A stretch of DNA of 64,000 nucleotides from an uncultured Thermus sp. (GTDB lineage: Bacteria > Deinococcota > Deinococci > Deinococcales > Thermaceae). The notes under the pieces were generated by a model that saw only the letters and a list, made by a program, of their open reading frames with translations, had not been told where the DNA came from and made no database searches. The position numbers and the translations under genes were made by a program. The stretch covers positions 32,001-96,000 of the forward strand of contig CAMTVD010000018.1 in the NCBI GenBank assembly GCA_947085095.1, in the 5' to 3' direction. Positions 3,370 to 40,330 of this stretch are shown in pieces; the stretch's first letter is position 1; every line of letters starts with the position of its first letter.

Positions 3370-3373
3370 AGCC

Positions 3374-22053: not shown

Positions 22054-23582
<1,529 letters not shown>

Positions 23583-23583
23583 G

Positions 23584-26379
23584 CTACGGGGCCTTCCGCA
23601 GATGGACGGGGGTGGGGGAGGTGAAGCCCGGGGGCAGGGGAAGGGGCTCGCCGTACCGCACCAAGACGGTGGGCGCCACGGGGTAACAGCCCATATTCTC
23701 GCCGTAGATGGCCAGGCCGCCCCGGTGGACGGCGTTCCAGGGCACCGTGAGCCGGAGGGCCAGGTGGCCGTGCTCGGCAAACCGGTTGCGGATGGCTAGG
23801 CCCGCCGGTGAGTCCAGGGAAACATGGGCCTGCATCAGGTAGCCGTACGAGCCCCGTTCCTGGCCGCGCCAGTGGGACAGGACTCCCCGGGCGTCTGCGG
23901 GGTCATCGGCTAGATGCCAGGTGGCTACTCGCACCCCGTTCAGGGAAACCTCCACCGTGGTGGGGAAGGGCTTGTCCTCGGTCTGGGGGTAGTCCTCGGG
24001 GTGGAGGCGTTCCGGCCAGTCCACCTTTTCCCGCCCGGCTTTGGCGGCGACCTCGCAGAGAAAGGTGAGGGACTCTGCCCCTTCCAGGGTAACGCCCTCG
24101 GGTAACCGGAGCCGGTACTCCACAAACCCGTGCCCCCGGCCGTAGTGCTTGCCCTCGAGGCTTGGGGGTGCGGAGGCCTCGCTGAAGGAGCTTTCCCAAA
24201 AATCCCCCGGAGCGAAGCGCAGGGCCAGGGTGCTGGCGTCCACCCCCTCCACCCGGGGCAGGCCTCTGGCGTCCCGCACCCACCACTGGGTGTAGTTGGT
24301 GTGCACCCGCTTCCCCTCTTTGTCCTCCAGCCAGGCCACCAGGGTTGCCAGGGCGGGCTCCCGGGGTAGGGTGATGGGGATTTCCCCCAAGGGTGCCAGC
24401 CGGTAGGGGGGAAAGCGCGGGCACGCCCTGGATTCCACAGGCTCCTCGCGCCAGCTGCCGAAGCGGTCCAGCCACCGCATCAGCCACCGGAGGACCAGCC
24501 CCTCCTCATGGCGGCCGCTCATGTGGCTGAAGAGGACGGGCACCCTTACCCTTTCCCCGGGTTGGGCGGTTTTGATGGCCGGCACGTCCAGGACGAGGAA
24601 GTCCTCGGCGAAGACGTCCCGCACCGCCATACCCGGGGCCCAGAAGGCATACCCGAAGGCCTTGGGGGAGCGGTCGTAGTTGTAGATGCCGTTGTGCTCC
24701 CACTCCACATCGGTCAGCTGGGTGTAGGTGTAGCCCGAAAGCTTCTCGCAACCCCGCAGGGCGTTGACGTAGAAGAGGGTTCCCCAGGAGACGTCCCCGT
24801 CCCCGTCCTCGGCGCTCACGTAGCCGAACTCGTTGTTGACGAAGGGCTCGCCCCGTTGCCGGTAGCCGGCGATGTAGTTCCAGCCCTCCCCAGCTTTAAT
24901 GTGCTCGGCGCTGGCCTCACGGCAGAGCTGCCCCACGATCTCCATGTCCCGCCCGTACCAGTGGAAGGAGTTCAGGTCGGTGTCCAGGTGGGACCAGCCC
25001 GAGTTGTCGTGCACCAGCCGCGTGGGGTCCAGCTGTCGGGCGAGGTGGACCATCTCCAAAGCCCAGTAGATGCGGTGCTCTTCCGGAGCCTTTTCCGGGC
25101 TGCCAAGGCCCCACTCCTCATTGAAGATCGTCCAGCAGAAGATGCTGGGGTGGTTGAAGTCCCGCTCTATCAGCTCGCGCAGGGTTTGCGCGAAGGCTTC
25201 GCGGGCGCGCTGGGCGTTCTCGGGGGTGTAGGGGGCCTCGGGGTGGGTGAGGAGCCAGGTGTTGGGCAGGTCCTGCTGGACCAAAAGGCCCAGGCGGTCG
25301 GCCCAGTAAAGGCGGCGGGGCTCGTCCGCCTTGACGTGGATGCGGAGCATGTTGAAGCCGGCCTCCTTGGCCAGCTCCACGTCCCTTCGCAAAAAGGCCT
25401 CGCTGGGGGCGGTGTAGATGCCTTCGGGGTTGAAGGACTGGTCCAGAACCCCGCGCAGGTAGATGGGCTTGCCGTTCAGCAGGACAAAACTGGGGTGCTC
25501 CTCGGCGGGTTGCCCAAAGGCCACGGTGCGGATGCCGAAATAGGTGCGGACGCGGTCGTAAACCCTGGCCTTTGCCCCTCTTCCGGCGCGGAGCAGGATC
25601 TCCGCAGGGTAGAGGTAAGGGGTCTCGGGGCTCCAGAGGATGGGCTCGGGGACCCTGATCTCCAGTTCCATCTCCTCCTGATCCGGCGCCGCCTTGGCCT
25701 CCGCGGTGGGAAACCGCCCTTCAGGGGAGCGCACCTCTACCCAGACCTCCCCGTTCCCTTCCTCCCTTCCCCGGTCCAGCCTGATGGCGAACCGCACCCT
25801 TCCCGTGGGAAGGTGGTCCTGTCCCGCCAGGGGAAGGATGCGGAATCCCCGGATGGCCACTGGTCCCGTGGCCTCCAGCCAGACGGTCTGCCAGATGCCG
25901 CTCGTGGGGGTGTACCAGCCCACCTGCTTGCCCGTGGGCAGCGCCGGGTCGGTGGAGTCGGCTACCCGGACGGTGAGCTGGTTGGGCATGGAGAAGCTAG
26001 CCTGTTGGGAGACATCAAAGCGGAACTCGCCGTAGCCGCCCGCGTGTTCCCCCACCTTTTCCCCGTTCAGCCAGACCGTGGCGTGCCAGTCCACCGCGCC
26101 AAAGCAAAGCCAAAGCCGCCTGCCCCTCCAGGCCTCGGGAAGGGTAAAGGTGCGCCGGTACCAGGCGACGCCCCTATAGTCCGTGCGCTCCAGGCCGCTA
26201 AGCCGGCTTTCCCAGGGAAAGGGCACCAGGATGCGCAAGGGGAAGGCGGGGGGAGAGGCGAACCATCCTCCCTCCATCCCGATATTCTCTGGATCAAAGG
26301 CGAACTCCCAGATGCCGTTGAGGGTCCGCCACGCCGGGCGCTTCAGGTCGGGGCGGGGGTGTTCGGGCCGGGGGATCAC
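23584..26379 (-). CDS. Large GH2-family glycoside hydrolase with an uncharacterised C-terminal extension
   Basis: PRPEHPRP...LNGIWEF, FGAVDW, GIWQTVWLE, GFNMLRIHVK, NHPSIFCWTIFNE (acid/base), NEFG (nucleophile). Confidence 0.88.
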   Translation of the reverse strand: MIPRPEHPRPDLKRPAWRTLNGIWEFAFDPENIGMEGGWFASPPAFPLRILVPFPWESRLSGLERTDYRGVAWYRRTFTLPEAWRGRRLWLCFGAVDWHATVWLNGEKVGEHAGGYGEFRFDVSQQASFSMPNQLTVRVADSTDPALPTGKQVGWYTPTSGIWQTVWLEATGPVAIRGFRILPLAGQDHLPTGRVRFAIRLDRGREEGNGEVWVEVRSPEGRFPTAEAKAAPDQEEMELEIRVPEPILWSPETPYLYPAEILLRAGRGAKARVYDRVRTYFGIRTVAFGQPAEEHPSFVLLNGKPIYLRGVLDQSFNPEGIYTAPSEAFLRRDVELAKEAGFNMLRIHVKADEPRRLYWADRLGLLVQQDLPNTWLLTHPEAPYTPENAQRAREAFAQTLRELIERDFNHPSIFCWTIFNEEWGLGSPEKAPEEHRIYWALEMVHLARQLDPTRLVHDNSGWSHLDTDLNSFHWYGRDMEIVGQLCREASAEHIKAGEGWNYIAGYRQRGEPFVNNEFGYVSAEDGDGDVSWGTLFYVNALRGCEKLSGYTYTQLTDVEWEHNGIYNYDRSPKAFGYAFWAPGMAVRDVFAEDFLVLDVPAIKTAQPGERVRVPVLFSHMSGRHEEGLVLRWLMRWLDRFGSWREEPVESRACPRFPPYRLAPLGEIPITLPREPALATLVAWLEDKEGKRVHTNYTQWWVRDARGLPRVEGVDASTLALRFAPGDFWESSFSEASAPPSLEGKHYGRGHGFVEYRLRLPEGVTLEGAESLTFLCEVAAKAGREKVDWPERLHPEDYPQTEDKPFPTTVEVSLNGVRVATWHLADDPADARGVLSHWRGQERGSYGYLMQAHVSLDSPAGLAIRNRFAEHGHLALRLTVPWNAVHRGGLAIYGENMGCYPVAPTVLVRYGEPLPLPPGFTSPTPVHLRKAP

Positions 26380-26401
26380 CAGCCCTAAGTTTACAATGAG
26401 T

Positions 26402-26431
26402 TTGACTCTTCAGGGGGCGGAAATGTAACCT
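26402..26431 (+). promoter_or_regulatory. Putative sigma-A promoter of the glycosidase operon
   Basis: TTGACT-18 nt-TAACCT in an AT-richer divergent intergenic gap. Confidence 0.5.
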
Positions 26432-26450
26432 TGAGGCAAAAGGGGGTAGT

Positions 26451-27242
26451 ATGAGCCTTCTAGAGCGGTTGGGGCTTTCCGGCAGGCGGGTCCTCATCCT
26501 TCACCACGATGACCTGGGCCTGACCCACGCCCAGAACGAGGCTTACCTGGCCTTGGGCTTCCCCACGGGAAGCGTCATGGTCCCTGGGGCTTGGGCGGGC
26601 GGGGTGAGGGGCCGGGACCTGGGGGTCCACCTGGTCCTCACCAGCGAGTGGCCCGCCCCCCGGATGCGCCCCCTCACCGAAGGGGAGAGCCTAAAGGAGG
26701 AGGCGGGCTTCTTCCCCTCCTCTTTAGAGGCCCTTTGGCGGCGGGCCCGGGCCGAGGAGGTGGAGAGGGAGCTCAGGGCCCAGATAGAGGCGGCCAAGAG
26801 GCTCTTCTCCCCCACCCATCTGGACACCCACCAGGGGGCGGTCCTGAGGCCGGACCTGGCCGAGGTCTACCTGCGCCTGGCCCAGGAATACCGCCTTCCC
26901 GCCTTGGTTCCGGAGAGCCTCGAGGGCCTGGGCGTTCCCGAGGCCTTCCTCCCCGACCTTCTGCGCCTCATGGAAAAGGCCCCCTTCCCCCGGGTGCGCT
27001 TCCTGGACCCCTACAACCTTCCCCCGGAGGAACGGCTTGGCTTTTACCTGGACCTCTCCCGGCTTCCCCCGGGGCTTTACCACCTGGTCCACCACAGCGC
27101 CCTGCCCACCCCCGAGGGCCGGGCCTTGCCCGACTGGGCCAGCCGGGAGGCGGACTACTTCGCCCTGAGCCACCCGGAGGTGCGCCGGGTCCTCTCTGAG
27201 TTCCACCCCCTCACCTGGAAAGAAGTCCGGGAGGCCTTATGA
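26451..27242 (+). CDS. YdjC/ChbG-family carbohydrate deacetylase
   Basis: ILHHDDLG, GVHLVL, THLDTHQG. Confidence 0.85.
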   Translation: MSLLERLGLSGRRVLILHHDDLGLTHAQNEAYLALGFPTGSVMVPGAWAGGVRGRDLGVHLVLTSEWPAPRMRPLTEGESLKEEAGFFPSSLEALWRRARAEEVERELRAQIEAAKRLFSPTHLDTHQGAVLRPDLAEVYLRLAQEYRLPALVPESLEGLGVPEAFLPDLLRLMEKAPFPRVRFLDPYNLPPEERLGFYLDLSRLPPGLYHLVHHSALPTPEGRALPDWASREADYFALSHPEVRRVLSEFHPLTWKEVREAL

Positions 27243-28492
27243 AGGCTTGGCGCTACGCCTCGGGGCAAATGGGTCTCACCATAGTTTCGGAGAGCTTCGG
27301 CACCTATCTGGCCTTTTTCTATCTGGAAAAGCTCGGGTTGTCCGCCGCATTTTATGCCCTGGCGCGCAGCCTGTACGCCATCTGGGACGCGGTGAACGAC
27401 CCCCTCTTTGGCCACCTCTCCGACCGCACCAAGACCCCCTTAGGCCGCAGGCGGCCCTGGCTTCTTCTGGGCATTCCCCTCTTCCTCCTCTTCTACCTCC
27501 TGGTCTTCTGGGTGCCGGACTGGGCCAAAAGCCCGGGGGTGCTTCCCTATTACTTCCTCCTGGCCATCGTGCTTTATGAAACCACGGCCACCGTGATCTG
27601 GACCAACTACGGCGCCCTTTTCCCGGAGATGTTCCGGAACCTCGCGCAAAGGGCCCAGGCCGCGGCCTTGAAGCGGGGCACGGAGCTCTTTGGCCTCATT
27701 CTGGGCATCGCCCTGGCCCCGGTGATCTACGCCCAGTTTGGCTTTGCGGGCATGGCGCTTCTCTTTGCTGGACTGGCCCTTTTCGCCTTCCTGTTCTTCC
27801 TCTCGGGCGTGGAGGAGGACCCCAGGGCGGAAAGCGGGCTTGGACTTTTGCCCTCGTTCCGCCTGGTCTTCGCTAACCGGGCCTTCTGGGTAGCGGCTTT
27901 GGTGGGTCTTCTCTTTGAGTTCGGGCGCACGGTGATCCAGACGGCCATGGCCTTCTACGCCAAGCACAGCCTGGGCCTGCCCGAGGCGGCCACCACCCTC
28001 CTCTTCGCCGCCGTCTTCCTGGTGGCCCTGCCCTCGGTCTTCCTCTGGGGAAGGCTTTCCCAGGTTTTGGGGGGGAAGCGGGCCTGGCGGCTTGCCCACC
28101 TCCTCATGGGCTTGAGCGCCCTTCTTCTTTTCCTGCCCCAAAGCCTTCTCCCCGCCGTCCTGGTGGGGGCCTTGGTGGGGATGGGCTTCGCCGGGGTGCG
28201 GGTCACGGGGGAGGTGATCATGGCCAAGGTCATTGACCTGGACGCGGAGAAGACGGGCACCCGCAGGGAGGGGGCCTACTACAGCCTGGTGGGGCTTCTG
28301 GGGCGGGTCTCCGGGGCTTTGGTGGGCCTGGCCTTCGCCCTTCTGGGGCCCCTCTTTGGCTACGTGAGCGGGGAGAACCCGGGGCCCAACCCTGGCCTGG
28401 CCTTCCGCTTCCTCATCTCCGTGGTGCCGGGGGTGGCCATCCTGCTGGCCTTCCTCCTCACCGCCTTATTCCCCCACGAGGTGCGGGAATGA
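27239..28492 (+). CDS. GPH (MelB-like) MFS glycoside transporter
   Basis: WDAVNDPLFGHLSDRT, GRRRPW, RREGAYY. Confidence 0.9.
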   Translation: MKAWRYASGQMGLTIVSESFGTYLAFFYLEKLGLSAAFYALARSLYAIWDAVNDPLFGHLSDRTKTPLGRRRPWLLLGIPLFLLFYLLVFWVPDWAKSPGVLPYYFLLAIVLYETTATVIWTNYGALFPEMFRNLAQRAQAAALKRGTELFGLILGIALAPVIYAQFGFAGMALLFAGLALFAFLFFLSGVEEDPRAESGLGLLPSFRLVFANRAFWVAALVGLLFEFGRTVIQTAMAFYAKHSLGLPEAATTLLFAAVFLVALPSVFLWGRLSQVLGGKRAWRLAHLLMGLSALLLFLPQSLLPAVLVGALVGMGFAGVRVTGEVIMAKVIDLDAEKTGTRREGAYYSLVGLLGRVSGALVGLAFALLGPLFGYVSGENPGPNPGLAFRFLISVVPGVAILLAFLLTALFPHEVRE

Positions 28493-30849
28493 AGTCTGAG
28501 CCCAGATTCCTGCAAAAGGCCCTGCTGGCCCTCCGCTTCCTGGGCCCGGAGGGGACCCGGCGGGCCCTTTTCTACGCTCTTTTGCGGGACTACTGGAACC
28601 GCATGCAACCTGCGCCGCAGGGCCCCTGGCGTGGCGTGGGGCCGCCCCAGGCCATGGTGGCCATCCCCGGGGGAGGGCGCTTCCTCTTCCCCGAGGGGGA
28701 GCTGGAGGCAGTTTTCCTAGAGGGGGGGCTCCGCCTCACCTGGACCCCGGGCCGCCTCCCACCCCCTTACGCCATAGAGAAAGCCCCTGCCCTCCTGGAG
28801 CCTGAACGGGAGGAGGGCGGGGGGCGCTTCGCCCTGGCGGCGGGGGGCGTCCGCCTCGAGGTGGGGCCGGAGGGCCTCCTCTTCCTGGACGAAGGGGGCC
28901 GGGTGTGGCGGCGGGAGGCCCTGCCCGAGCGCCAAGGGGAGGCCTGGCGGCACCGGGTGGACCTGGCCCCGGGGGAGCGGCTTTACGGTCTTGGGGCGGT
29001 GGCGGCCCCTCTGGACCGCCGGGGGCGGAGCTACCGCCTCTGGAACCGGGATGTGGGGGGGAGTTACGGCCCGGATGAGGGCCCCCTGTACCTCACCATC
29101 CCCTCGCTCCTTTCCCGCAAGCCTGGGGGCGGGTACCTGGTCTTCTACGAGAACCCCCACGAGGCCTTTTTGGACCTGAGCGGCGATGTGGGCCTGGTGG
29201 CCTTTTCCGGCGGGGCTCTGAGGTACTACCTCTTTCCCGGGGGGCCCAAGGAGGCCCTGGCCGCCTACACTGCCCTCACGGGCAGGCCGCCCCTCCCGCC
29301 CCGCTTTGCCTTGGGCCTCCACTTCGCCCGCTGGGGGCTTAGGACGGAGGAGGAGGCGCGGGAGGTGGTGGAGGGGTTTTTCGCCCACGACCTCCCCCTC
29401 TCCGCCCTGCACCTGGACATAGACTACATGGACGGCTACCGGGTCTTCACCGTGGACCGGAGGCGTTTCCCCCATCTGGAGGGGCTGGTGCGGGACCTGG
29501 AGGGGCGGGGGGTGCGCACGGTCCTCATCCTGGACCCCGGGGTCAAGGCCGAGGCGGGCTTTCCCCCCTTTGAGGCGGGCCTGAAGGAGGGGGTCTTCTG
29601 CACCCTTCCCGGGGGCCGCCTCCTGAAGGCCCCGGTGTGGCCGGGGTGGTGCGCCTTCCCCGACTTCACCAGCCCCAAGGCCCGGGCCTGGTGGGGCGAG
29701 CGGTGCGGGGAGCTCCTCGCCCTGGGCGTTCACGGCTTCTGGCTGGACATGAACGAGCCCGCCGCCTTCGCCGCCTGGGGGGACCCCACCCTTCCGGGCC
29801 CCACCCGGCACGCCCTCGAGGGCCAGGAGGGGGACCACCGCGAGGCCCACAACCTCTACGGCCTCCTCATGGCCCGGGCCACCCACGAGGCCCTGCGGGC
29901 GCGGGGCGTGGCCCGCCCCTTCCTCTTCTCCCGCTCCGGCTTTGCGGGCCTGGCCCGCTACGCCTGGAACTGGACGGGGGACGTGGAGAGCAGCTGGGAG
30001 GCCCTTCGGCGCACGGTGGGCATCGTCCTGGGGCTTGGGCTTTCCGGGGTGCCCTACACGGGCTCGGACATCGGGGGCTTCAGCGGCCACCCCTCCCCGG
30101 AGCTTTTCCTTCGCTGGTTCCAGGCCGCGGCCTTCATGCCCTTCTTCCGCCTCCACTCCGCCATCTCCACCCCCAGGCGGGAGCCCTGGCGCTTCGGCGA
30201 GCCCGTGGTTTCCGTTCTCCGAAACTTTTTGCGGCTCCGCCACGCCCTCATCCCCTACCTCTACACCCTGGCCTGGGAGGCCCGGGAGAAGGGCTATCCC
30301 CTGGTCCGCCCCCTCTTCTTCTTGGACCCGGAAAGGGAAGCGGAGGACGCCTTTCTCCTGGGGGAGGACCTTTTGGTGGCCCCGGTGGTGGAGGAAGGGG
30401 CCCGCCACCGCCTGGTGCCCCTGCCCAAGGGTCTCTGGTACGAGTTCTGGAGCGACCGGCTGGTGGAGGGGCCCGGGGAGGTATGGGCCGAGGCGCCCCT
30501 AGAGCGCATCCCCATCTTTGTGCGGGCGGGCGCCGCCTTGCCCCTGGTGGAGGGGGAGGGCCTGGTCCTCCACCTCTACCCGGGGCCTGAGGGCCGGGCC
30601 GAAGGAAGCCTCTACTGGGACGAGGGGGATGGGGAGGGGCCCTCCCGGCTGGACCGCTTCCTCCTGGAGGGGGGGCGGCTCCTGTGGCAGGGGGAGGGGG
30701 ATTACCCCTGGCCCTGGGAGGGGCTAGGGCTTCGCCTGCACGGGGCTGGGCTCAAGGGGGGAAGGGTGGGGGATGCGGTCTACCCCGCCGAGGAGGGGGT
30801 TCTCTGGCTTCCCCCCTTCCGCGAGGTCCTTTTGGAGGTGGAGGGATGA
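28489..30849 (+). CDS. GH31 alpha-glucosidase-like hydrolase
   Basis: HLDIDYM, WLDMNEP nucleophile, WTGD, GSDIGGF. Confidence 0.92.
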   Translation: MKSEPRFLQKALLALRFLGPEGTRRALFYALLRDYWNRMQPAPQGPWRGVGPPQAMVAIPGGGRFLFPEGELEAVFLEGGLRLTWTPGRLPPPYAIEKAPALLEPEREEGGGRFALAAGGVRLEVGPEGLLFLDEGGRVWRREALPERQGEAWRHRVDLAPGERLYGLGAVAAPLDRRGRSYRLWNRDVGGSYGPDEGPLYLTIPSLLSRKPGGGYLVFYENPHEAFLDLSGDVGLVAFSGGALRYYLFPGGPKEALAAYTALTGRPPLPPRFALGLHFARWGLRTEEEAREVVEGFFAHDLPLSALHLDIDYMDGYRVFTVDRRRFPHLEGLVRDLEGRGVRTVLILDPGVKAEAGFPPFEAGLKEGVFCTLPGGRLLKAPVWPGWCAFPDFTSPKARAWWGERCGELLALGVHGFWLDMNEPAAFAAWGDPTLPGPTRHALEGQEGDHREAHNLYGLLMARATHEALRARGVARPFLFSRSGFAGLARYAWNWTGDVESSWEALRRTVGIVLGLGLSGVPYTGSDIGGFSGHPSPELFLRWFQAAAFMPFFRLHSAISTPRREPWRFGEPVVSVLRNFLRLRHALIPYLYTLAWEAREKGYPLVRPLFFLDPEREAEDAFLLGEDLLVAPVVEEGARHRLVPLPKGLWYEFWSDRLVEGPGEVWAEAPLERIPIFVRAGAALPLVEGEGLVLHLYPGPEGRAEGSLYWDEGDGEGPSRLDRFLLEGGRLLWQGEGDYPWPWEGLGLRLHGAGLKGGRVGDAVYPAEEGVLWLPPFREVLLEVEG

Positions 30850-32894
30850 AGCTGGAAAAGGCGCTTTTTCTGGCCCATCCGGCCCAGGACCCCCGGGGGC
30901 TTCCCGGGGAGGGGTGGAAGGAGGTGGCCTTGCCCCACCAGTGGAGCCTCGAGGGCCTGGAGGCCGAGGTGGGCTGGTACCGCCTCCAGGTGCCCGAGGT
31001 GGGGCCAAGGCGCTTCCTGCGCCTTTGGGGGGATTACTACCAGGAGGCCTGGCTGGACGGGGCTTACCTGGGGCGGCACGAGGGGTACTTCTTCCCCTGG
31101 CTTTTGGAGCTTCCCCCGGGGCGGGAGCTTCTCCTAAGGGTCTCGGCCCCCAGGGAGCCCTTGGACCGGTGGCCCAGGTTCAAGCGGCAGATCAAGGGGG
31201 TCTTGGGCCAGCACGACTGCCGCCCTGGGGGGAACACGGAAAGGGGGCAGGAGCGGGGCACCGGGGGGCTTTGGGGCGGGGTGGAGGTCTGGCCCCGGCA
31301 GGAGGTGGCCCTCCTGGCCCTCACCCACCGCGCCCACCGGACCCCCACGGGCTGGCGGCTTCTGGTCCGGCTCTTGGTGGACGCTCCCCGGGCCTTTCAG
31401 GAGGAGGTTTGGCTTCGCCTCCTTCCGGAAAACTTCCCCGGGGAGGCCCGGGAGAAGCGGGGGGAGGTCCTTGGGGAGGGGGGCCGCTCCTGGCTTGAGG
31501 TGGTGTGGGACCTGCCGGAGATGCCCCTTTGGGAGGTGTGGGAGCGGGGCTTCCCCCACCTCTTCCGCCTCGAGGCGGAGCTCATGGGGGCCAGGCTTTC
31601 CGCCCCCCTGGGCTTCCGCACCCTGGGGCTGGATGGGGAGGGCTGGCTCCTTCTGAACGGGAACCGCCTCTTCCTCCGGGGCACCAACATCATCCCCACC
31701 CAGTGGCTTTCGGGCTACGGGGAGGAGCTGGCCCAAAGGGACGTGGCCCTCGTCAAGGAGGCCCACCTGAACGCGGTGCGGGTCCACGCCCACGTGGCCC
31801 ACCCCGCCTTTTACCGGGCCTGCGACCGGGAGGGGGTTCTGGTCTGGCAGGACTTCCCCTTGCAGTGGGGCTACGCCCCCGACGAGGCCTTCGCCAGGGA
31901 GGCCCTGCGCCAGGCCCGGGCCATGGTGGACCTTTTGGGGGCCCACCCCGCCATCTACCTCTGGTGCGCCCAGAACGAGCCCACCCACAACCGCCACACC
32001 CTGGGCCCCCTCCTCCTTACGGCCCTGAAGGAGGCCGACCCCACCCGCCCCGTGAAGGAGGCCTCGGACTTCCGGGAGCACCCCTATCCCGGCTGGTACT
32101 ATGGGCACCACCGGGACTTCCTGGCCCTCCCCGGGGCCCCCCTGCCCTCGGAGTTCGGGGCCCAGGCCCTGCCCCGGGCGGAGCTTCTCAGGCGGGTCCT
32201 GGGGGAGGCCGCCTGGCCGCCTCGGTGGGAGGTCTGGGCCTACCACAACTTCCAGCCCCACGAGACCTTCCGGGTGGCGGGGGTGGAGGTGGGGGAGAGC
32301 CTCGAGGCCTTCGTGGAAAGCTCCCAGGCCTACCAGGCGAAGCTCCTCACCTTCGCCATCCACGCCTACCGCCGGGCCAAGGGCAAGGTGGTGGGTTACT
32401 TCCAGTTCATGTTCGTGGAGCCCTGGGAGGGGATTACCTGGGCGGTCTTGGACGTGGAGCGGGTCCCCAAGAAGGGGTTTTACGCCCTGAAGGAGGCCAG
32501 CAGCCCGGTCCTCCTCTCCCTGGTGCCCTTCCGCGAGCGGCTGGAGGTGGGCGGCCCGCCCCTCATGGAGGCCTGGCTGGTGAACGACCTGCCCCGGCCC
32601 CTAAGGCTTCGGGTGCGCCTTTGGCTGGAGGGGGAGGCGGGGCTGGACCTCTGGCAGGGGGAGATGGACCTGGGGGCGGGGGAGGCGCGGTGCTTCTTCC
32701 ACCTCATGGAGGCCTGGGAGGCTCCCCTGGAGGCCCAGGCCGCCTTGGCTCCCTTGCAGGAGGCCCTGAGGGGCCTTCCTCCCGGGGAGTACCGCCTGGT
32801 GGGGGAGGCCTGGGAGGGGGAGAGGCTTTGGTCCCGGCACCAGGTGGCCCTCACTTACCTGCCCCCCCTCCTGCCCCCGGGGGTGGCCTGGTAG
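30846..32894 (+). CDS. GH2 beta-galactosidase / beta-mannosidase-like hydrolase
   Basis: LRGTN, NAVRVHAH, WQDF, WCAQNEP, SEFG; ATG at 30846. Confidence 0.85.
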   Translation: MKLEKALFLAHPAQDPRGLPGEGWKEVALPHQWSLEGLEAEVGWYRLQVPEVGPRRFLRLWGDYYQEAWLDGAYLGRHEGYFFPWLLELPPGRELLLRVSAPREPLDRWPRFKRQIKGVLGQHDCRPGGNTERGQERGTGGLWGGVEVWPRQEVALLALTHRAHRTPTGWRLLVRLLVDAPRAFQEEVWLRLLPENFPGEAREKRGEVLGEGGRSWLEVVWDLPEMPLWEVWERGFPHLFRLEAELMGARLSAPLGFRTLGLDGEGWLLLNGNRLFLRGTNIIPTQWLSGYGEELAQRDVALVKEAHLNAVRVHAHVAHPAFYRACDREGVLVWQDFPLQWGYAPDEAFAREALRQARAMVDLLGAHPAIYLWCAQNEPTHNRHTLGPLLLTALKEADPTRPVKEASDFREHPYPGWYYGHHRDFLALPGAPLPSEFGAQALPRAELLRRVLGEAAWPPRWEVWAYHNFQPHETFRVAGVEVGESLEAFVESSQAYQAKLLTFAIHAYRRAKGKVVGYFQFMFVEPWEGITWAVLDVERVPKKGFYALKEASSPVLLSLVPFRERLEVGGPPLMEAWLVNDLPRPLRLRVRLWLEGEAGLDLWQGEMDLGAGEARCFFHLMEAWEAPLEAQAALAPLQEALRGLPPGEYRLVGEAWEGERLWSRHQVALTYLPPLLPPGVAW

Positions 32895-32936
32895 CCTGGG
32901 GCGTGGACCGGGCCCGGAGCCCATAAAGGGGAAAGA

Positions 32937-34367
32937 ATGCGGGCGAAGCTGGGCGATGTGGAGCTGGCCCTCGAGGCGGAATCCCTGGAGAGGGTAGAAG
33001 GGGGAATCCGCCTTCTGGGAAAGGAGGTGCGGGTTTACCCCCCTTTCCAGGCCCGGACCTTCTTCCGCCACGGCTGGCAGAGCTGGAGCCTTACCGCCTG
33101 GGTGGACCTGAAGGAGGCCAAAAGGCCCCTCCTTCCCAAGGAACGGCGGCCCCAGGCGGACGACCCCTTCCTCCTGGAGTCCTCGGCCTGGTGGGGAAGC
33201 GGGGTGGGGGCCCTGAAGGGACCGGACGGGAAGGTGCTCCTCTTGGGCGCCCTGGGCGTGGGGGCCCGGGTGCGGGGGGAGGAGGGCCTCCTCCTGGGCC
33301 GCTACGCGGAGGGGGAGGGGGAGTGGTTTCTGGCTTACAGCGAGGAAGCGGAGGTTTTCGCCGCCTACAGCAGGCTTCTCCCAGGGAGGCTATCCGGGAG
33401 GCCCCCCAGGGTCTGGTGCTCCTGGTACAGCTTCTTCACGGGGATCAGCGAGGCCCTTCTCCTTTCCGTCCTGGAGGAGATACGGGGCTACCCCTTTGAG
33501 GTCTTTCAGGTGGACGACGGCTGGCAGAGGGCCTTAGGGGACTGGGAGCCCAACGAGAGGTTCCCCCGGGGCATGGCCTTTTTGGCGGAGGCCATCCGGG
33601 AGAGGGGCCTGAGGCCCGGGCTGTGGCTCGCCCCCTTCCTGGTGACGGTGGAAAGCTCCCTTTACCGGGGCCATCCAGACTGGGTGTTGCGGGACGGGGA
33701 AGGCAGGCCCATCCCTGCGGGCTTCAACTGGGGTAAGCCCCTTTTCGCCCTGGATTCCGGTAAGGAGGAGGTGGTGGACTTCGCGGTGGACCTGGTGCAC
33801 AAGGCCCTCGCCTGGGGGTACGACTACCTCAAGCTGGACTTCCTCTACGCCGCCGCCCTCCCCGGGGCCGAGGGGGAGGGGCGGTACCGGGAGGCTTTGG
33901 GGCGGATCCGCCAGGCGGCGGGAGCAGCCTACCTCCTTTTCTGCGGGGCCCCGGTCTTCGCCTCCTTGGGCCTGGCCGACGGCCTCAGGGTGGGGCCCGA
34001 CGCGGCCCCCTACTGGGACAACGAGGACCGGACCCTCTGGCTTTCCGACCCCACGGGGCCGGGGCTCAGGAACGCCCTCCGCACCAGCCTCAACCGGCTT
34101 TGGCTCGGGGAAAATGTCCATGTGGATCCCGATGTGGTCTACTTCCGCACCCGCTTCAACCTGCTCCGCCCAGAGGAGATGCGCCTGCAGGAGGGCCTGG
34201 CCCACCTTACCGGGTTCAAGGCCACCTCGGACCCTCCCTCCTGGCTTCTGCCCGAGGAAAAGGAACGCCTTCGGGCCTTTCTTTCCCAGGAGGTGCCCGT
34301 GCGCCGTCTGGGCCCCTACCAGCTTCAGGTGGGGGAGGAGGTTCTGGACTATGCCCTCGTTCTATAA
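32937..34367 (+). CDS. GH36 alpha-galactosidase
   Basis: WCSWY, FQVDDGW, GLWLAPF, YLKLDF, RVGPD. Confidence 0.92.
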   Translation: MRAKLGDVELALEAESLERVEGGIRLLGKEVRVYPPFQARTFFRHGWQSWSLTAWVDLKEAKRPLLPKERRPQADDPFLLESSAWWGSGVGALKGPDGKVLLLGALGVGARVRGEEGLLLGRYAEGEGEWFLAYSEEAEVFAAYSRLLPGRLSGRPPRVWCSWYSFFTGISEALLLSVLEEIRGYPFEVFQVDDGWQRALGDWEPNERFPRGMAFLAEAIRERGLRPGLWLAPFLVTVESSLYRGHPDWVLRDGEGRPIPAGFNWGKPLFALDSGKEEVVDFAVDLVHKALAWGYDYLKLDFLYAAALPGAEGEGRYREALGRIRQAAGAAYLLFCGAPVFASLGLADGLRVGPDAAPYWDNEDRTLWLSDPTGPGLRNALRTSLNRLWLGENVHVDPDVVYFRTRFNLLRPEEMRLQEGLAHLTGFKATSDPPSWLLPEEKERLRAFLSQEVPVRRLGPYQLQVGEEVLDYALVL

Positions 34368-35397
34368 GCGCTACCACCGCAAGGCCGACGGGCGGGAGCT
34401 GATCCTCTATGGCCATAGCCCCCTCACAGCAGAACCCCTCCCTGAGCCCGAGGAGGCCTTCCGGCCCGCCCCCCACCTCCGCCACCACCCCTTGCGGGGG
34501 GAGTGGGTGGTCTACGCCGCCCACCGCCAGGAGCGCACCTTTTTGCCCCCCAGGGAGCACTGCCCCCTTTGCCCCAGCCGGGAAGGGGGCTTTCCCACGG
34601 AGATTCCCTTTCCCCGCTTCCAGGTGGCGGTTTTTGAGAACCGCTTTCCCTCCCTGGTGCCAGGCCCCCCCTCTCCCCCCGAGGGCCTGCCGGTGGCCGT
34701 GGGGGAGGCTTTGGGGCGGTGCGAGGTGGTGGTCTACACGGAGGCCCACACCGGGAGCCTGGCCTCCCTCTCTGAGGAGGAAAGGCTTCTCCTCGCCTGG
34801 GTGTGGCGGGAGCGCTACCAGGCCCTCTACGCCTTGGAGGGGGTGCGCTTCGTCATGCCCTTTGAGAACCGGGGGGAGGCGGTGGGGGTTACCCTCCACC
34901 ATCCCCACGGGCAGATCTACGCCTATCCCTTCGTGCCCCCCGTCCTGGAGCGGGAGAGCCAGGCCTTCCGGGAGAAGGCGGTTCTGCTAGAGCTTTTCCC
35001 CCACCTGGGCCCTTACGCCGTGGACCAGGAGGAGGGTTTCTTGGCCTTCGTGCCCCCCTTTGCCCGCTACCCCTTTGAGGTCTGGGTGGCCCCAAAGGAG
35101 CGCCACCCCGGCCCCTGGACCTTCGGCGAGGGGGAGATGGCCGCCTTCGCCCGGCTTTTGGGCCGGGTGGTGGCCCGCTACGATGCCCTCTACGGGGAGC
35201 CTTTCCCCTACGTCATGGTCTTCCACGCCGCCCCCTTGGGGGAGGAGGGCACCTTCCACTTCCACGTGGAGTTCTACCCACCAAGGCGCACCAGGGACAA
35301 GCTGAAGTTTTTGGCGGGGACGGAGCTTGGGGCGGGCACCTTCGTGGTGGACGCGCTTCCAGAGGACACGGCGCGAATCTTACGGGAGGCGTTATGA
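34351..35397 (+). CDS. galT: Galactose-1-phosphate uridylyltransferase
   Basis: CPLCP, FENRG, HPHGQ; ATG at 34351. Confidence 0.94.
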
Positions 35398-36884
35398 AAT
35401 ACTTGCTGGCCTTAGACCAGGGGACCACCTCCAGCCGGGCCATCCTCTTCACCCTGGGGGGCGAGGTGGTGGCCGTGGCCCGGCGGGCCTTCCGGCAGCT
35501 TTACCCGGAGCCGGGCCTGGTGGAGCACGACCCCAAGGAGATCTGGGAGACCCAGTTATGGGCGGCCCAGGAGGCTTTGCGCCAGGCGGGGGCGGACCCC
35601 AAGGAAGTGGTGGCCCTGGGGATCACCAACCAGCGGGAGACCACCCTGGTGTGGGACCGGACCACGGGCGAACCCTTCCACCACGCCCTCGTCTGGCAGG
35701 ATAGGCGCACCGCTTCCCTGTGCGAGGCCTTTAGGGAGAAGGGCCTGGAGCCCCTCTTCCGGGAGCGCACGGGCCTCCTCCTGGACCCCTACTTCTCGGG
35801 AACCAAGCTCCTGTGGCTTCTGGAGAATGTGCCCGGGCTTAGGGCGAAGGCGGAGAGGGGGGAGGCCCTCTTCGGCACCGTGGACACCTGGCTCCTCTGG
35901 AACCTCACCGGGGGTAGGGTCCACGCCACCGACCCCACGAACGCCAGCCGTACCCTGCTCTTCAACCTGCACACCCTGTCTTGGGACGAGGAGCTGCTGG
36001 ACCTTCTGGGGATTCCTGGGGCCATGCTCCCCGAGGTGCGTCCCTCGGACGGGGACTTCGGGGAGGCCCTGCCGGAGCTTCTTGGGGCCCCCATCCCCAT
36101 CCGGGGGGTTCTCGGGGACCAGCAGGCGGCCCTCTTCGGCCAGGCGGCCCTCTTGGCGGGGGAGGGAAAGTGCACCTACGGCACCGGGGCCTTCCTCCTC
36201 CTGAACACGGGGGGGCGCCCGGTCTTCTCCCAGAAGGGCCTCCTCACCACCGTGGCCTGGAGCCTGGGCGGGAAGGCCACCTACGCCCTGGAGGGAAGCG
36301 TCTTCGTGGCCGGGGCGGCCATCCAGTGGCTCAAGGAGGTGGGCCTCATCGGGGAAAGCCGGGAGGTGGAGGCCCTGGCGGGGAGCGTGGCGGATAACGG
36401 CGGCGTCTACCTGGTCCCCGCCTTCGCCGGCCTGGGGGCCCCCTACTGGGACCCCTACGCCCGGGGGGCCATCCTGGGCCTCACCCGGGGGACCACCAGG
36501 GCCCACCTGGCCCGGGCGGCCCTGGAGGGAGTGGCCTTCCTGGTGGCGGACGTGGCGGAGGCCATGGCGGAGGAGGCCCGCCTCCCCCTCCAGGAGCTCA
36601 AAGTGGACGGGGGCATGGCGGAAAACGACCTCTTCCTCCAGATCCAGGCGGATCTCCTGGGGAGGGCGGTGGCCCGGCCCCGGGTGACGGAGACCACGGC
36701 CCTGGGAGCGGCCCTGATGGCGGGGGTGGGGGCGGGGGTCCTGGACCTGGAGGGGGTGCGAGGGGTCTGGAACCTGGAGGCCCGCTTTGCTCCCGGGATG
36801 CCCGGGGACCGCCGCCAGGCCCTCTTGCGGGGGTGGCGGCGGGCGGTGGAACGGGCTATGGGCTTCGCCAGGGAGGAAACGTGA
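35394..36884 (+). CDS. glpK: Glycerol kinase
   Basis: [40 protein letters not shown]. Confidence 0.96.
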
Positions 36885-38412
36885 TGGACCGGGAAGCCCT
36901 CTGGGCAAGGCTCAAGGAGCCCTTTGACCTCCTCATCCTCGGCGGGGGGGCCACGGGGGCCGGGGTGCTTTGGGAGGCCACCTTAAGGGGGCTCAAGGCG
37001 GCCTTGGTGGAGGCGGGAGACTTTGCCTCAGGGACGAGCTCCCGGAGCACCAAGCTCCTCCACGGGGGGGTGCGCTACTTGGAGCTGGCGGTGAAGCGCC
37101 TGGACCGCCGCCAGTTCAAGCTGGTGCGGGAGGCCTTGGCGGAGCGCAAGGTGGTTCTGGACCTTGCCCCCCACCTGGCCCGGCCCCTCACCCTCATCAC
37201 CCCCCTCTTCCGCCCGCTGGAGATCCCCTACTACTGGGCGGGCCTCAAGCTCTACGACCTCCTGGCGGGGAAGAGGTGCCTCGGCCCTAGCCGCTACCTT
37301 CCCCCGGAGGCGGTGCGGGACCTCTTCCCCGACCTGCCCAGGACCCTGGGGGGCGTGGCCTACCAGGACGGCCAGTTTGAGGACTTCCGCCTGAACCTGG
37401 CCTTGGTCCTCTCCGCCCTGGACCGGGGGGCGGTGGCCCTGAACCACGCCGAGGCCAAGGCCCTTCTCCTGGAGGGGGGCCAGGTGCGGGGGGCGGTGGT
37501 GGAGGACCGCCTCACGGGAAAGGAGGTGGAGGTCCACGCCAAGGCGGTGGTGAACGCCACCGGCCCTCTGGCCGACGGGGTGCGCCGCCTTTTGGACCCC
37601 CACCTCCCCCCCCTCCTCACCCCCTCCAGCGGGGCCCACCTGGTCCTGGACTACCCCCTGAAGGCGGGCCTCCTCATCCCCAGGACCCAAGACGGCCGGG
37701 TCCTCTTCCTCCTGCCCTACCGGGGAATGGCCCTCCTGGGCACCACGGACCTCCCCGCCGAGCCCGGGCCCTGCCCCCTTCCCCGGGAGGAGGAGGTGGC
37801 CTACCTCCTTCAGGAGATCCGCCCCTACCTGGGGGACCTCGCCTCCCGGGTGCGGGCCTCCTGGTCGGGCCTGAGGCCCCTGGTGGGGAAGGGGGAGACC
37901 AGGCTTTTGGTGCGGGACCACTACATAGAGGCCAGGCAGGGGCTCTACACCCTGGTGGGGGGGAAGTGGACCACCTTCCGCCTCATGGCCCTGGACCTGG
38001 TGGAGCGGGTGGCCCGGGACCTGGGCCTTTTCCTACCCCCTTCCGCCTCCCACACCACTCCCCTCCTGGGGGCGGGCCCCCGGCCTCCCCTGGACCTTTC
38101 CGGGGAGGTGGCCCAGCACCTCTACGCCACCTACGGGGCCCTGGCCCTCGAGGTGGCCTCCCTGGGGGATAGGCCCCTCCTCCCGGGGCTTCCCTACCTG
38201 GAGGGGGAGGTGCGTTGGGGGGTACGGCACGAGCTGGCCCAAAAACCCCTGGACATCCTGGCCCGGAGGATGGGGCTAGCCTTCCTGGACCGGGAGAAGG
38301 CCCTTCTGGCCCTGCCCCGGGTGGTGGAGCTCATGGCCCCCCTCCTGGGCTGGAACGAGGGGCGGAAGGCGGCGGAGCTGGAGGAGGCCAGGAGGGCCCT
38401 CCCTGGGCTTTG

Positions 38413-38416
<4 letters not shown>
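36881..38416 (+). CDS. glpD: FAD-dependent glycerol-3-phosphate dehydrogenase
   Basis: [33 protein letters not shown]. Confidence 0.95.
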
Positions 38417-40257
<1,841 letters not shown>

Positions 40258-40330
40258 CGTCTACCTCCCTTGTCCTATGGTAGCGCCTTCCCGGTGAGAG
40301 GACTGAGGGGTGTGGTATCCTTTAGCGGCG

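Follow-up and report, generated by a model that had tools for sequence, protein, structure and literature searches.

Fridjonsson et al. reportedly described in 2000 that Thermus alpha-galactosidase loci have genes for GH42 and an ABC transporter on their upstream side. Bacterial import of deacylated glycolipid head groups from plants or phototrophs followed by GH31, GH2 or GH36 cleavage has precedents in the YihQ GH31 sulfoquinovosyl-glycerol clusters and in the action of lac/mel on galactosylglycerol; to our knowledge, glycerol genes are not fused to the glycosidase operon in the sulfoquinovosyl-glycerol and lac/mel systems. The E. coli chb operon (ChbG, ChbF) encodes a YdjC-family deacetylase with a transporter and a glycosidase, and the archaeal chitin pathway has a similar deacetylate-then-cleave pairing of a deacetylase with an exo-beta-glucosaminidase.

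According to excerpts of published reports, the alpha-galactosidase and galT genes of T. thermophilus HB27 (TTP0072, on pTT27) partially overlap, resembling other Thermus spp. (PMC5307791). The Thermus enzymes TaGH2 (Thermus antranikianii) and TbGH2 (T. brockianus) are short GH2 beta-glucosidases of 78-79 kDa with partial domains (PMC4453472) and belong to CAZy subfamily GH2_15 (PMC12243196). We analyzed a Thermus locus at which such glycosidase genes are joined to glpK and glpD, which is probably a mosaic operon serving the use of galactose, glycerol and small glycosides, and whose three modules are separable elsewhere.

Results

The window, the whole 64,000-nucleotide stretch that was analyzed, comes from an uncultured Thermus sp. 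(contig CAMTVD010000018.1). The original prediction was that eight co-directional genes at 26451-38416 import and fully degrade glycerol glycosides. Its gene layout was correct when the boundaries were re-read: ydjC, a GPH symporter, GH31, a 682-aa GH2, GH36, galT, glpK and glpD follow each other on the + strand, each as a single open frame. Four junctions overlap by ATGA (27239, 28489, 30846, 35394), one by GTGA (36881) and GH36/galT by 17 bp, as in T. thermophilus HB27, leaving a 42-bp gap between GH2 and GH36 as the sole non-overlapping junction of seven. In crude gene calls of this genome, 18% of adjacent gene pairs on one strand (221 of 1198) shared an RTGA 4-bp overlap and 35% had an overlap of any kind, and five RTGA overlaps in 7 junctions gave a binomial P of ~0.003. 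By the same calls, runs of at least 8 co-directional genes were common (46 of 568 runs). Unrelated genes are also packed tightly: galK, which lies on another contig and thus outside the window as originally stated, has a znuA-type gene at a distance of 7 nt and formate-dehydrogenase-like genes beside it. The tight packing suggests that the array is co-transcribed. The presumed promoter region of the array and of a divergent GH2 gene is the 71-bp intergenic region between them (26380..26450), placed by position only because a consensus scan of 23000-41000 returned no sigma-70-like site.

The second half of the array encodes galactose and glycerol metabolism. The GH36 gene (32937..34367, + strand; PF02065) encodes a 476-aa alpha-galactosidase of the short AgaT/TtGalA type, which matched PDB 6lcj with 844 bits over 1-475, and its FEVFQVDDGW motif agrees with the consensus quoted in PMC5307791. 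The enzyme type is shared with the Thermus agaT/TtGalA loci, and GH42 and ABC transporter genes stand upstream in relatives of the window. The window differs from those loci in having no regulator, ABC transporter or GH42, in the genes upstream (ydjC to the short GH2, module A) and in the presence of glpK-glpD after galT. The galT gene (34351..35397, + strand; TIGR00209, 115 bits, cutoff 102; both GalT Pfam domains) is single-copy in the genome. GH36 and galT (module B) would represent the tail of an order-wide DeoR-ABC-GH42-GH36-galT galactoside cluster, and glpK-glpD (module C) would convert glycerol to dihydroxyacetone phosphate. GlpK (35394..36884, + strand) scored 686.8 bits against TIGR01311 (cutoff 590). 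The glpD-type gene for an FAD-dependent glycerol-3-phosphate dehydrogenase (36881..38416, + strand; PF01266 and PF16901) reached 217 bits against the NCBIfam G3P dehydrogenase equivalogs, under the cutoff. The pair resembles the classical glp regulon (glpFK, glpD, GlpR) in a GlpK above the equivalog cutoff and a GlpD-type protein with DAO and DAO_C domains; unlike that regulon, GlpF and GlpR/DeoR were not found in the genome and the translation of glpK is coupled to that of galT. The predicted lack of a glycerol facilitator was borne out, the MIP/GlpF family being unmatched in the 93%-complete genome, so intracellular glycerol release from imported glycosides would make sense. The missing GlpF runs against a mosaic reading of the array, as do two further observations: glpK (tblastn, whole genome) and glpD are the only copies, with no intergenic room for a promoter of their own, and the enzyme set fits known glycerol glycosides bond for bond.

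The substrates proposed for this set were alpha-Gal-1,6-beta-Gal-glycerol, beta-Gal-glycerol and alpha-glucosylglycerol. The island would then take up and wholly degrade deacylated galactolipid head groups and compatible solutes of phototrophs, with GH36, a beta-glycosidase and GH31 freeing the hexoses, and with GalT (GalK being encoded elsewhere) and GlpK/GlpD passing galactose and glycerol to central metabolism. The missing GlpF, the single-copy glpK and glpD that are promoterless by position, and the near-identical sequence found in hot-spring metatranscriptome runs are consistent with such a role. However, it leaves YdjC and a furanosidase-type GH2 without a function, GH42 and the ABC transporter have been lost from the window itself, and a full-text literature search returned no relevant operons or glycerol-glycoside assays of such enzymes. 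We regard this route as unlikely. The glcD/E/F-like genes that had been cited for the same niche are present (2113-5789, - strand), but they lie 20 kb off behind housekeeping genes and contribute nothing.

The furanosidase-type GH2 lies at the left edge of the island, which is bordered in most Thermus genomes by ddl (D-alanine--D-alanine ligase; 22617..23582, + strand; NCBIfam NF002528, 362 bits; Pfam Dala_Dala_lig). The right anchor is ftsH (38413..40257, - strand; TIGR01241, 766.6 bits), which faces glpD tail to tail in most genomes of the genus; here the two genes overlap by 4 nt at their stops. Pfam and NCBIfam supported the family assignments in the array, but the original count of three glycosidases missed this divergent 931-aa GH2 (23584..26379, - strand; four GH2 Pfam domains), 71 bp from ydjC. 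Its N-terminal 570 aa are of the furanosidase type (GH2 group III) and are followed by a 360-aa C-terminal extension without family assignment; an 87%-identical copy occupies the equivalent position in genome G018. The best solved relatives were the beta-D-galactofuranosidase 9j6n (E 1e-76), 7sf2 and 7xyr, with which the catalytic NEEWG and TDVEWE stretches align; similarity to the three is about equal, and only one of them is a proven Galf-ase. In excerpts of PMC12243196, 9J6M and 7XYR are assigned to GH2_18/19 and furanosidase activities are confined to GH2 group III.

Module A would consist of ydjC, the GPH symporter, GH31 and the short GH2, here with the divergent GH2 in addition, and its symporter would take up small glycosides for subsequent cytoplasmic cleavage; no signal peptide was visible in its enzymes. 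YdjC (26451..27242, + strand; NF052308, 436.9 bits, cutoff 400; PF04794) is a carbohydrate deacetylase orthologous to T. thermophilus TTHB029 (PDB 2e67, 498 bits over 1-263). TTHB029 conserves the catalytic residues of ChbG, with 22% identity and a narrower active site (PMC9402603). By likeness to chb, the array suggests a deacetylate-then-cleave route, although its transporter is a GPH symporter rather than a PTS and its glycosidase a GH2 rather than a GH4. The symporter (27239..28492, + strand) is a GPH-type (MFS_2) glycoside:cation symporter (PF13347, 221.6 bits; TIGR00792, 170 bits, under the 231 cutoff), and its gene is immediately 3' of ydjC without exception in 15 Thermus genomes. GH31 (28489..30849, + strand; three GH31 Pfam domains; WLDMNEP motif at residue 418) is of the alpha-glucosidase type, its closest solved relatives being the alpha-glucosidases 9kz6, 5djw and 2g3m MalA; in contrast to the YihQ clusters, it is far nearer to alpha-glucosidases (364-478 bits) than to YihQ sulfoquinovosidase (99-119 bits). 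The short GH2 (30846..32894, + strand; 682 aa, 77.9 kDa; NE motif) is atypical in that the TIM-barrel domain was its sole Pfam match (PF02836, 42 bits). It shares genus, size and partial domain pattern with TaGH2/TbGH2. Several named species of Thermus have homologs of 682 aa with 79-89% identity; one of them, T. igniterrae, also appears in the identity table of PMC4453472, and the short GH2 is probably an ortholog of TaGH2/TbGH2. In excerpts of that study the substrate panel comprises nitrophenyl glycosides, cellobiose and lactose, with no hexosaminides or glycerol glycosides, and TbGH2 acts on aryl beta-Glc and beta-Gal but not on lactose or cellobiose; the natural aglycon may therefore be a non-sugar, a point in favour of the phototroph compounds.

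The furanosidase-type GH2 would also suit salvage of Thermus-type glycolipid head groups, either the cell's own or from dead neighbours. In Thermus, the main glycolipid has the structure Galf(b1-2)Galp(a1-6)GlcpN-acyl(b1-2)Glcp(a1-)diacylglycerol (NGL-A and NGL-C structures; PMC3398001). The furanosidase-type GH2 would be the candidate enzyme for beta-Galf, GH36 for alpha-Gal, YdjC with the short GH2 (putatively of a subfamily in the GH2 group for C2-modified sugars) for N-acylated beta-glucosamine, and GH31 for alpha-Glc-glycerol, with GlpK/GlpD using the glycerol and GalT the galactose. All nine genes would be accounted for, including the two left idle by phototroph substrates. The match to a Galf-specific enzyme, in the one GH2 group with furanosidase activities, fits this scheme, as does the placement of GH2_15, characterized from Thermus, in group II with mannosidases, glucosaminidases and one beta-N-acetylhexosaminidase (PMC12243196, in part). 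The short GH2 accompanies ydjC-GPH in 15 of the 15 Thermus genomes carrying the pair, and a different genus within the family has two genomes with ydjC-GPH immediately ahead of GH36-galT. The lipid N-acyl group, however, is a long iso-fatty acid instead of acetyl, which YdjC may or may not remove; an N-acylated fragment is an improbable GPH substrate, and the locus has no lipase or esterase. A search for UDP-galactopyranose mutase (PF03275) found no match in this genome (93% complete), and across the genus the presence of the mutase did not follow that of the furanosidase-type GH2 (7 of 11 genomes having this GH2 versus 12 of 21 lacking it). The three solved relatives are also about equally close, the GH family of an enzyme says little about its substrate, and the GH2_15 assignment is putative. 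We consider salvage quite improbable.

We further investigated conservation of the galT-glpK linkage. In 19 of 32 Thermus species genomes, and in one sister genus, glpK-glpD directly follow galT; the remaining 19 informative genomes sampled across the order do not have this arrangement (1 of 20 outside the genus positive), a restriction that argues against dedicated use of phototroph glycosides. The linkage looks like a single inherited event. Nearly all 19 linked genomes retained the galT/glpK overlap, and two genomes had alternative orders, glpK-glpD-galT (G002) and glpK-glpD beside DeoR-ABC-GH42-GH36-galT (G005), with a divergent glpK (58-61% identical); together these hint at selection for linkage. 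The commonest Thermus layout was GH42 beta-galactosidase, GH36 alpha-galactosidase, galT, glpK and glpD, the exact enzyme set for digalactosylglycerol, with a DeoR regulator and ABC transporter upstream in some (G014, G009, G041, G018, G008 and the sister genus, G140). Three genomes had ddl-galT-glpK-glpD without a glycosidase between ddl and galT (G006, G020, G021), and G047 had galT-glpK-glpD-ftsH with no glycosidase shown on a contig that begins at galT. Five of the 32 Thermus genomes (G010, G013, G016, G023, G046) retained galT but lacked an intact glpK at the site. Three of these five have glycosidases, G013 the whole set, and such persistence, like the loci with galT-glpK-glpD but no glycosidase shown, speaks against a dedicated glycerol-glycoside pathway. 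Our literature search found no published discussion of galT-glpK-glpD coupling.

The content of the ddl-ftsH site varied across Thermus. Cassettes upstream of galT alternated between ydjC-GPH-GH2-GH31-GH2 and DeoR-ABC-GH42, and the modules were unlinked in 4 Thermus genomes (G015, G003, G017, G043). In G015 (T. thermophilus HB8-like) the three lie apart on a 257-kb replicon, at ~19-28 kb, 101-104 kb and 128-131 kb. Outside Thermus, genera of its family and order have a DeoR-SBP-GH42-GH36-galT cluster that lacks glpK. When window positions 32701-33100 were compared with the G018 locus by blastn, the alignment extended ~27 nt beyond the GH2 stop and restarted within GH36, skipping ~4194-10986 of L011 in G018. 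The skipped ~6.8 kb, retained in this closest relative, encodes the DeoR regulator, ABC transporter and GH42, and the 42-bp spacer (32895..32936) is the scar. Judged by this alignment, the eight-gene array is a recent product of a ~6.8-kb loss. No DeoR homolog, GlpR included, was found anywhere in the genome of the window (G000); the DeoR regulators of relatives scored equally with AgaR and haloarchaeal GlpR, both under the cutoff.

The deletion also gave the GH36 gene a new upstream spacer, which would be compatible with an array that is not one transcription unit and in which internal promoters in upstream coding sequence mainly drive glpK-glpD, and perhaps GH36-galT, the physical fusion then having no regulatory meaning. 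T. thermophilus-type glpK has its own upstream region beside a divergent glycerophosphodiester phosphodiesterase gene, and the GH2/GH36, GH36/galT and galT/glpK junctions were uncrossed among the 32 metatranscriptome pieces listed (with 439 others besides). Against this, overlaps at six of seven junctions leave no intergenic promoter space, the last 120 nt of galT are by eye unlike the T. thermophilus glpK upstream motif, and terminator-like hairpins were not enriched (13 seen versus 16.2 expected). Separate units have a low probability.

Discussion

What is demonstrated here, namely the identities of the genes, their junctions, the synteny and the deletion, is best explained by a mosaic operon. 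In a Thermus ancestor, galT would have gained translational coupling to glpK-glpD through the ATGA overlap, and in this lineage the ~6.8-kb deletion would have brought module A against modules B and C. Because the deletion joins the modules, transcription of all eight genes probably begins in the promoter region that precedes ydjC. The predicted glyceroglycoside pathway agrees with the identities, packing, missing GlpF and linkage in Thermus, but not with the mosaic history, glpK losses and unlinked modules; it is attractive yet unproven, because the array is a patchwork of three separable modules. That sugar-glycerol compounds are physiologically important substrates of the island is possible, though somewhat doubtful. 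The chances are about even that the array is a Thermus-typical mosaic catabolic operon, in which the link to glycerol would be inherited architecture instead of proof of a dedicated pathway.

Organization of the eight-gene array

Open frames were re-read throughout the array, and the eight co-directional genes of the original prediction were borne out, with Pfam and NCBIfam agreeing on the names. They occupy the + strand in the order ydjC (26451-27242), a GPH/MFS_2 symporter gene (27239-28492), GH31 (28489-30849), a gene for a 682-aa GH2-like protein (short GH2, 30846-32894), GH36 (32937-34367), galT (34351-35397), glpK (35394-36884), and glpD (36881-38416). The junctions measured -4 (ATGA), -4, -4, +42, -17, -4 (ATGA), and -4 (GTGA), as claimed; 6 of the 7 overlap and the genes are co-directional, so there is little room for internal promoters or terminators. 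The prediction overlooked a divergent gene at 23584-26379 on the - strand, which encodes a 931-aa GH2 and lies 71 bp from ydjC. The island lies among housekeeping genes, between ddl on the left and a convergent ftsH on the right, and the G+C content of the window is 66-72%. The stop codons of glpD and ftsH overlap by 4 nt (38413-38416) with no terminator-like hairpin between them, and transcription past the array end would run antisense to ftsH.

Packing was compared with crude gene calls over the whole 2.08-Mb assembly, in which 18% of 1198 co-directional neighbour pairs had an RTGA overlap and 35% any overlap. Five RTGA overlaps among 7 array junctions had a probability of ~0.003, and this tight packing supports co-transcription. 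As a sign of a shared pathway it counts for little in this organism, since co-directional runs of at least eight genes are ordinary (46 of 568 runs) and tight packing of unrelated genes is frequent.

Protein families encoded by the array

YdjC, GalT, and GlpK each exceeded curated equivalog cutoffs. YdjC matched PF04794 (108.7 bits, cutoff 29.7) and NF052308 (436.9 bits, cutoff 400) over its full length and is the ortholog of Thermus thermophilus TTHB029 (PDB 2e67, 498 bits), which makes it a predicted carbohydrate deacetylase family member of the Thermus type. TTHB029 is a structural-genomics protein with conserved ChbG catalytic residues, still termed a hypothetical ChbG homolog in the available text of PMC9402603. 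GalT, with both Pfam halves and a TIGR00209 score of 115.1 bits (cutoff 102.1), is a class I hexose-1-phosphate uridylyltransferase, and GlpK scored 686.8 bits against TIGR01311 (equivalog cutoff 590.35). The identities of the GPH symporter, GH31, and GlpD, as judged from profile scores, are secure at the family level only. The symporter scored far over the Pfam MFS_2 cutoff (221.6 bits versus 27) and under that of TIGR00792 (170.1 versus 231). GlpD carried DAO (180 bits) and DAO_C (88.6 bits) in Pfam and reached 217 and 210 bits with NCBIfam equivalogs that have cutoffs of 360 and 352. GH31 had three Pfam domains (N-terminal, TIM-barrel, C-terminal) and the motif WLDMNEP at residue 418, which we take to be an alpha-glucosidase mark, and its best solved relatives were alpha-glucosidases. 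The MalA equivalog model scored 434 bits against a cutoff of 800, and no equivalog name was therefore given. A sulfoquinovosidase was ruled out for GH31, YihQ matches being far weaker than those to alpha-glucosidases.

GH36 matched PF02065 (68.6 bits) and the solved structure 6lcj (843.6 bits over residues 1-475), carried FEVFQVDDGW at residue 187, and is predicted to be a short alpha-galactosidase of the AgaT/TtGalA type (~476 aa). Both the FEVFQ(I/V)DDGW consensus of alpha-galactosidases and the overlap of GH36 with galT in T. thermophilus HB27 have been described (PMC5307791).

The short GH2 scored 42.2 bits with PF02836 (cutoff 21) and had the NE motif; its named homologs all came from Thermus species (79-89% identity). 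Through these homologs and the identity table of PMC4453472, it is probably kin to TaGH2 and TbGH2, which cleave nitrophenyl beta-glucoside and beta-galactoside. Cellobiose was cleaved by TaGH2, TbGH2 was inactive on cellobiose and lactose, and the substrate panel in the available part of that paper contained neither a hexosaminide nor a glycerol glycoside (PMC4453472). GH2_15, the Thermus-characterised subfamily, has been placed in the group to which every C2-modified specificity belongs, one beta-N-acetylhexosaminidase among them (PMC12243196). A single-sequence AlphaFold model of the short GH2 reached a pLDDT of 33, too low for use.

Residues 1-570 of the divergent 931-aa GH2 aligned with the beta-D-galactofuranosidase 9j6n (E 1e-76), with 7sf2 and 7xyr about equal. 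The top four PDB matches (9j6n and 9j6m, both galactofuranosidases, 7sf2, and 7xyr) scored 254-262 bits, and the catalytic stretches aligned. These relatives fall in the furanosidase group GH2_18/19 (group III), for which specificity determinants are described as undefined in the part of PMC12243196 that was available; specificity of this furanosidase-type GH2 for galactofuranose (Galf) thus cannot be told from sequence. A further 360 aa at its C terminus matched no Pfam family, and the gene is inverted.

Gene content of the genome

In the genome of the window, glpK, glpD, galT, and every glycosidase of the island were present in one copy each. The absence of a glycerol facilitator, predicted from the window, extended to the 93%-complete assembly, where no MIP/GlpF family member was found; nor were a homolog of the relatives' DeoR regulator or a UDP-galactopyranose mutase found in it. 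For hexosamine catabolism, nagA was present and a NagB of the Glucosamine_iso type, the one deaminase type sought, was not found. The sole galK, correctly placed outside the window, sits on another contig (L051 9652-11557, G000:C13). A gene for a znuA-type zinc-binding protein ends 7 nt before it, and NuoF-like and molybdopterin oxidoreductase (formate-dehydrogenase-like) genes follow it, a functionally mixed gene string. A glcDEF set had been assigned to the same niche as the array. GlcF/GlcE/GlcD-like genes do lie at 2113-5789 on the - strand, with glycolate oxidase as the best NCBIfam matches, yet under equivalog cutoffs; they are 20 kb off with housekeeping genes between, and no link to the array was seen.

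Distribution of the glycerol link across Thermus and the order

GH36, glpK, and galT were located in 32 Thermus species genomes (the relatives spanning 1.8-2.5 Mb), up to 20 kb around each was compared, and the window proteins plus five from relatives were mapped on these loci by tblastn. We found galT followed directly by glpK-glpD in 19 of the 32, with glpK in two pieces in G004 and galT with internal stops in G045. Two genomes (G022 and G024) had a contig break exactly at the galT/glpK point. In five (G010, G013, G016, G023, and G046) galT was kept and glpK was absent or a remnant; G013 had the complete upstream set, G023 had ydjC-GPH-short GH2, and G046 was without glpD too. A divergent glpK (58-61% identical) was linked in other orders in two genomes, as glpK-glpD-galT in G002 and as glpK-glpD beside DeoR-ABC-GH42-GH36-galT in G005. 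The ydjC-GPH-GH31-short GH2, GH36-galT, and glpK-glpD modules were unlinked in the remaining genomes G003, G015, G017, and G043. In T. thermophilus HB27 and HB8 they are carried by pTT27.

In the HB8-like G015, the modules lay at ~19-28, 101-104, and 128-131 kb of a 257-kb replicon, and glpK faced a glycerophosphodiester phosphodiesterase gene. On this T. thermophilus-type replicon (L038, G015:C3 ~127-131 kb), glpK-glpD stood between the divergent phosphodiesterase gene and a gene for Csm6, a CRISPR ancillary protein, and a Csm6 gene was beside glpK in G005 as well (L027). Matches to the GPH gene after ydjC in G015 (L048, G015:C3 ~19.5-20.8 kb) were split between two frames (residues 1-280 in one, 280-417 in the other), and the match of the short GH2 (~24.9-26.6 kb) ended at residue 573 of 682, which suggests that the ydjC module may be decaying there.

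Upstream of galT, no gene set was present in G006, G020, and G021, and the contig of G047, which begins at galT, was uninformative on upstream content. The other forms were GH36 alone; DeoR(-)-ABC-GH42-GH36; ydjC-GPH-[furanosidase-type GH2]-[GH31]-short GH2-[second GPH]-GH36; or the last combined with DeoR(-)-ABC-GH42-GH36. The short GH2 accompanied the ydjC-GPH pair in 15 of 15 genomes, and the furanosidase-type GH2 was found in 11 of the 12 with GH31. Scores of the relatives' DeoR regulators were equal for AgaR and haloarchaeal GlpR and under cutoff for both, and no effector could be named.

Outside the genus, the surroundings of galT were compared in other genera of the order (20 genomes plus two more); two contigs were too short, leaving 20 genomes informative. 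Only G140, from a sister genus, had galT-glpK-glpD; in the others all or part of DeoR-SBP-...-GH42-GH36-galT was present and glycerol genes were not, and ydjC-GPH lay between GH42 and GH36 in two genomes of another genus. Conservation of the galT-glpK linkage, proposed as a check of the pathway, therefore held within Thermus (19/32) and failed beyond it (1/20). Since the outside genomes share the galactoside cluster without the glycerol genes, the cluster is old, and glpK-glpD seem to have been joined to galT once, near the base of Thermus. Independent recurrence of a glycosidase-glycerol linkage across lineages was not found among these genomes, the rearrangements in G002 and G005 being the sole hint of it.

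Origin of the array

The closest relative, G018 (85-95% identical at the protein level), shares the divergent GH2, ydjC, GPH, GH31, and short GH2, followed by ~6.8 kb with an M24-like fragment, DeoR, an ABC transporter, and GH42, and then by GH36-galT-glpK-glpD. By blastn, the window matched G018 to ~27 nt beyond the GH2 stop and resumed inside GH36; from this break, the 42-bp spacer is a deletion scar, and the deletion also took away the sole DeoR-type regulator.

Two additional glpK-glpD copies were held by G018 (L046 = G018:C3 and L047 = G018:C4; 88% and 85% identical), one of them adjoining a distant GH31 (34%) and ABC permease genes. They were copied from the galT-glpK junction, since they still carry ~22 nt from the 3' end of galT, among them the ribosome-binding stretch. 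GH31 and the furanosidase-type GH2 of the window were 87-92% identical to the G018 copies; identity to other Thermus fell to 58-62% and 32-43%, respectively, whereas the flanking ydjC, GPH, and short GH2 stayed at 79-95%. By these identities the two look like a replaced (xenologous) allele pair.

Transcription of the array

A promoter consensus scan of 23000-41000 returned 0 sites, even upstream of ydjC, and was uninformative for this organism; terminator-like sites in the array were not above shuffled expectation. Four of 11 listed runs from hot-spring and freshwater metatranscriptomes, sharing 5-9% of sampled words, were compared with the window; the RNA pieces are all contigs, possibly including DNA, and cannot prove a single transcript or expression. 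Among the pieces listed, gph/GH31 was bridged by record 10 of run X2, gph/GH31 and GH31/GH2 by record 26 of run X4, and glpK/glpD by record 30 of X4. None of the 32 listed, beside which there are 439 others, crossed GH2/GH36, GH36/galT, or galT/glpK. We consider it quite unlikely that the array is made up of separate transcription units.

Contigs in runs X1 and X4 joined 28488 straight to 30846, without GH31, which was missing exactly between one ATGA junction and the next. The order ydjC-GPH-short GH2 without GH31 was also found in G008, G023, and G044, and GH31 behaves as a present-or-absent cassette in natural populations.

Functional interpretation

No signal peptide was visible by eye at the N-termini of the glycosidases; their substrates must therefore be imported. 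One transcript would start upstream of ydjC, small imported glycosides would be hydrolysed in the cytoplasm, galactose would enter the Leloir route with GalK encoded elsewhere, and glycerol would be converted to DHAP. We favour, with about half of our confidence, a mosaic operon whose glycerol link was inherited.

Any dedicated glyceroglycoside pathway must contend with modules that are separable, glpK lost while glycosidases are kept, galT-glpK-glpD forms without a glycosidase, and a link of single origin. In its favour are the conserved translational coupling, two rearranged forms that stay linked, single-copy and promoterless glpK/glpD, the missing GlpF, and a close biochemical fit. One such pathway, the use of phototroph galactolipid head groups and glucosylglycerol as substrates, suits the common GH42-GH36-galT-glpK-glpD layout well but offers no task for YdjC or the furanosidase-type GH2, and we regard it as improbable.

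A second would be the bond-by-bond salvage of the head group Galf-b1,2-Gal-a1,6-GlcN(acyl)-b1,2-Glc-a1-glycerol. The Thermus glycolipid is Galf(b1-2)Galp(a1-6)GlcpN-acyl(b1-2)Glcp(a1-)diacylglycerol (PMC3398001), which offers one bond per enzyme of the locus. The furanosidase-type GH2 is proposed to remove Galf and GH36 the alpha-Gal; YdjC would de-N-acylate glucosamine, enabling cleavage by the short GH2; GH31 would free glucose from glucosylglycerol, and the fused GlpK/GlpD would consume the glycerol. Against this, the glucosamine carries a long fatty acid as its N-acyl group, the locus has no esterase, and a Galf synthesis gene was not found in the 93%-complete genome. Nor did the furanosidase-type GH2 track that gene across Thermus (7 of 11 genomes with this GH2 versus 12 of 21 without). 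We think such salvage quite unlikely. Our weighting of all four readings, the mosaic operon foremost, follows from these opposing facts.

Our literature search found no galT-glpK operon in Thermus and no glycosylglycerol operons with glpK, and neither the galT-glpK-glpD coupling nor the module map was discussed in the papers searched; Fridjonsson et al. 2000 lay outside this search and may describe downstream genes. With known components and an agaT-galT pair that is already published, the locus is a variant of sugar-utilisation islands. The map identifies three sets of genes that travel together: ydjC, GPH, and the short GH2; GH31 and the furanosidase-type GH2; and galT and glpK-glpD. It also shows that in most Thermus species translation of the only glycerol kinase gene is coupled to that of galT, a Leloir gene. 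Should the link reflect genome architecture only, the locus would be an ordinary modular sugar island of a compact genome, one with many representatives. If head-group salvage were true, no operon for breaking down a bacterial glycoglycerolipid head group would have been described before this one, and three orphan Thermus enzymes would gain natural substrates. Work on AgaT/TtGalA, TaGH2/TbGH2, and TTHB029 has so far treated them as thermostable enzymes or as targets of structural genomics. The locus bears on the recycling of phototroph or own-kind membrane glycolipids by hot-spring heterotrophs, and its main value lies in the sharp, cheap substrate tests that it offers for these three enzymes.
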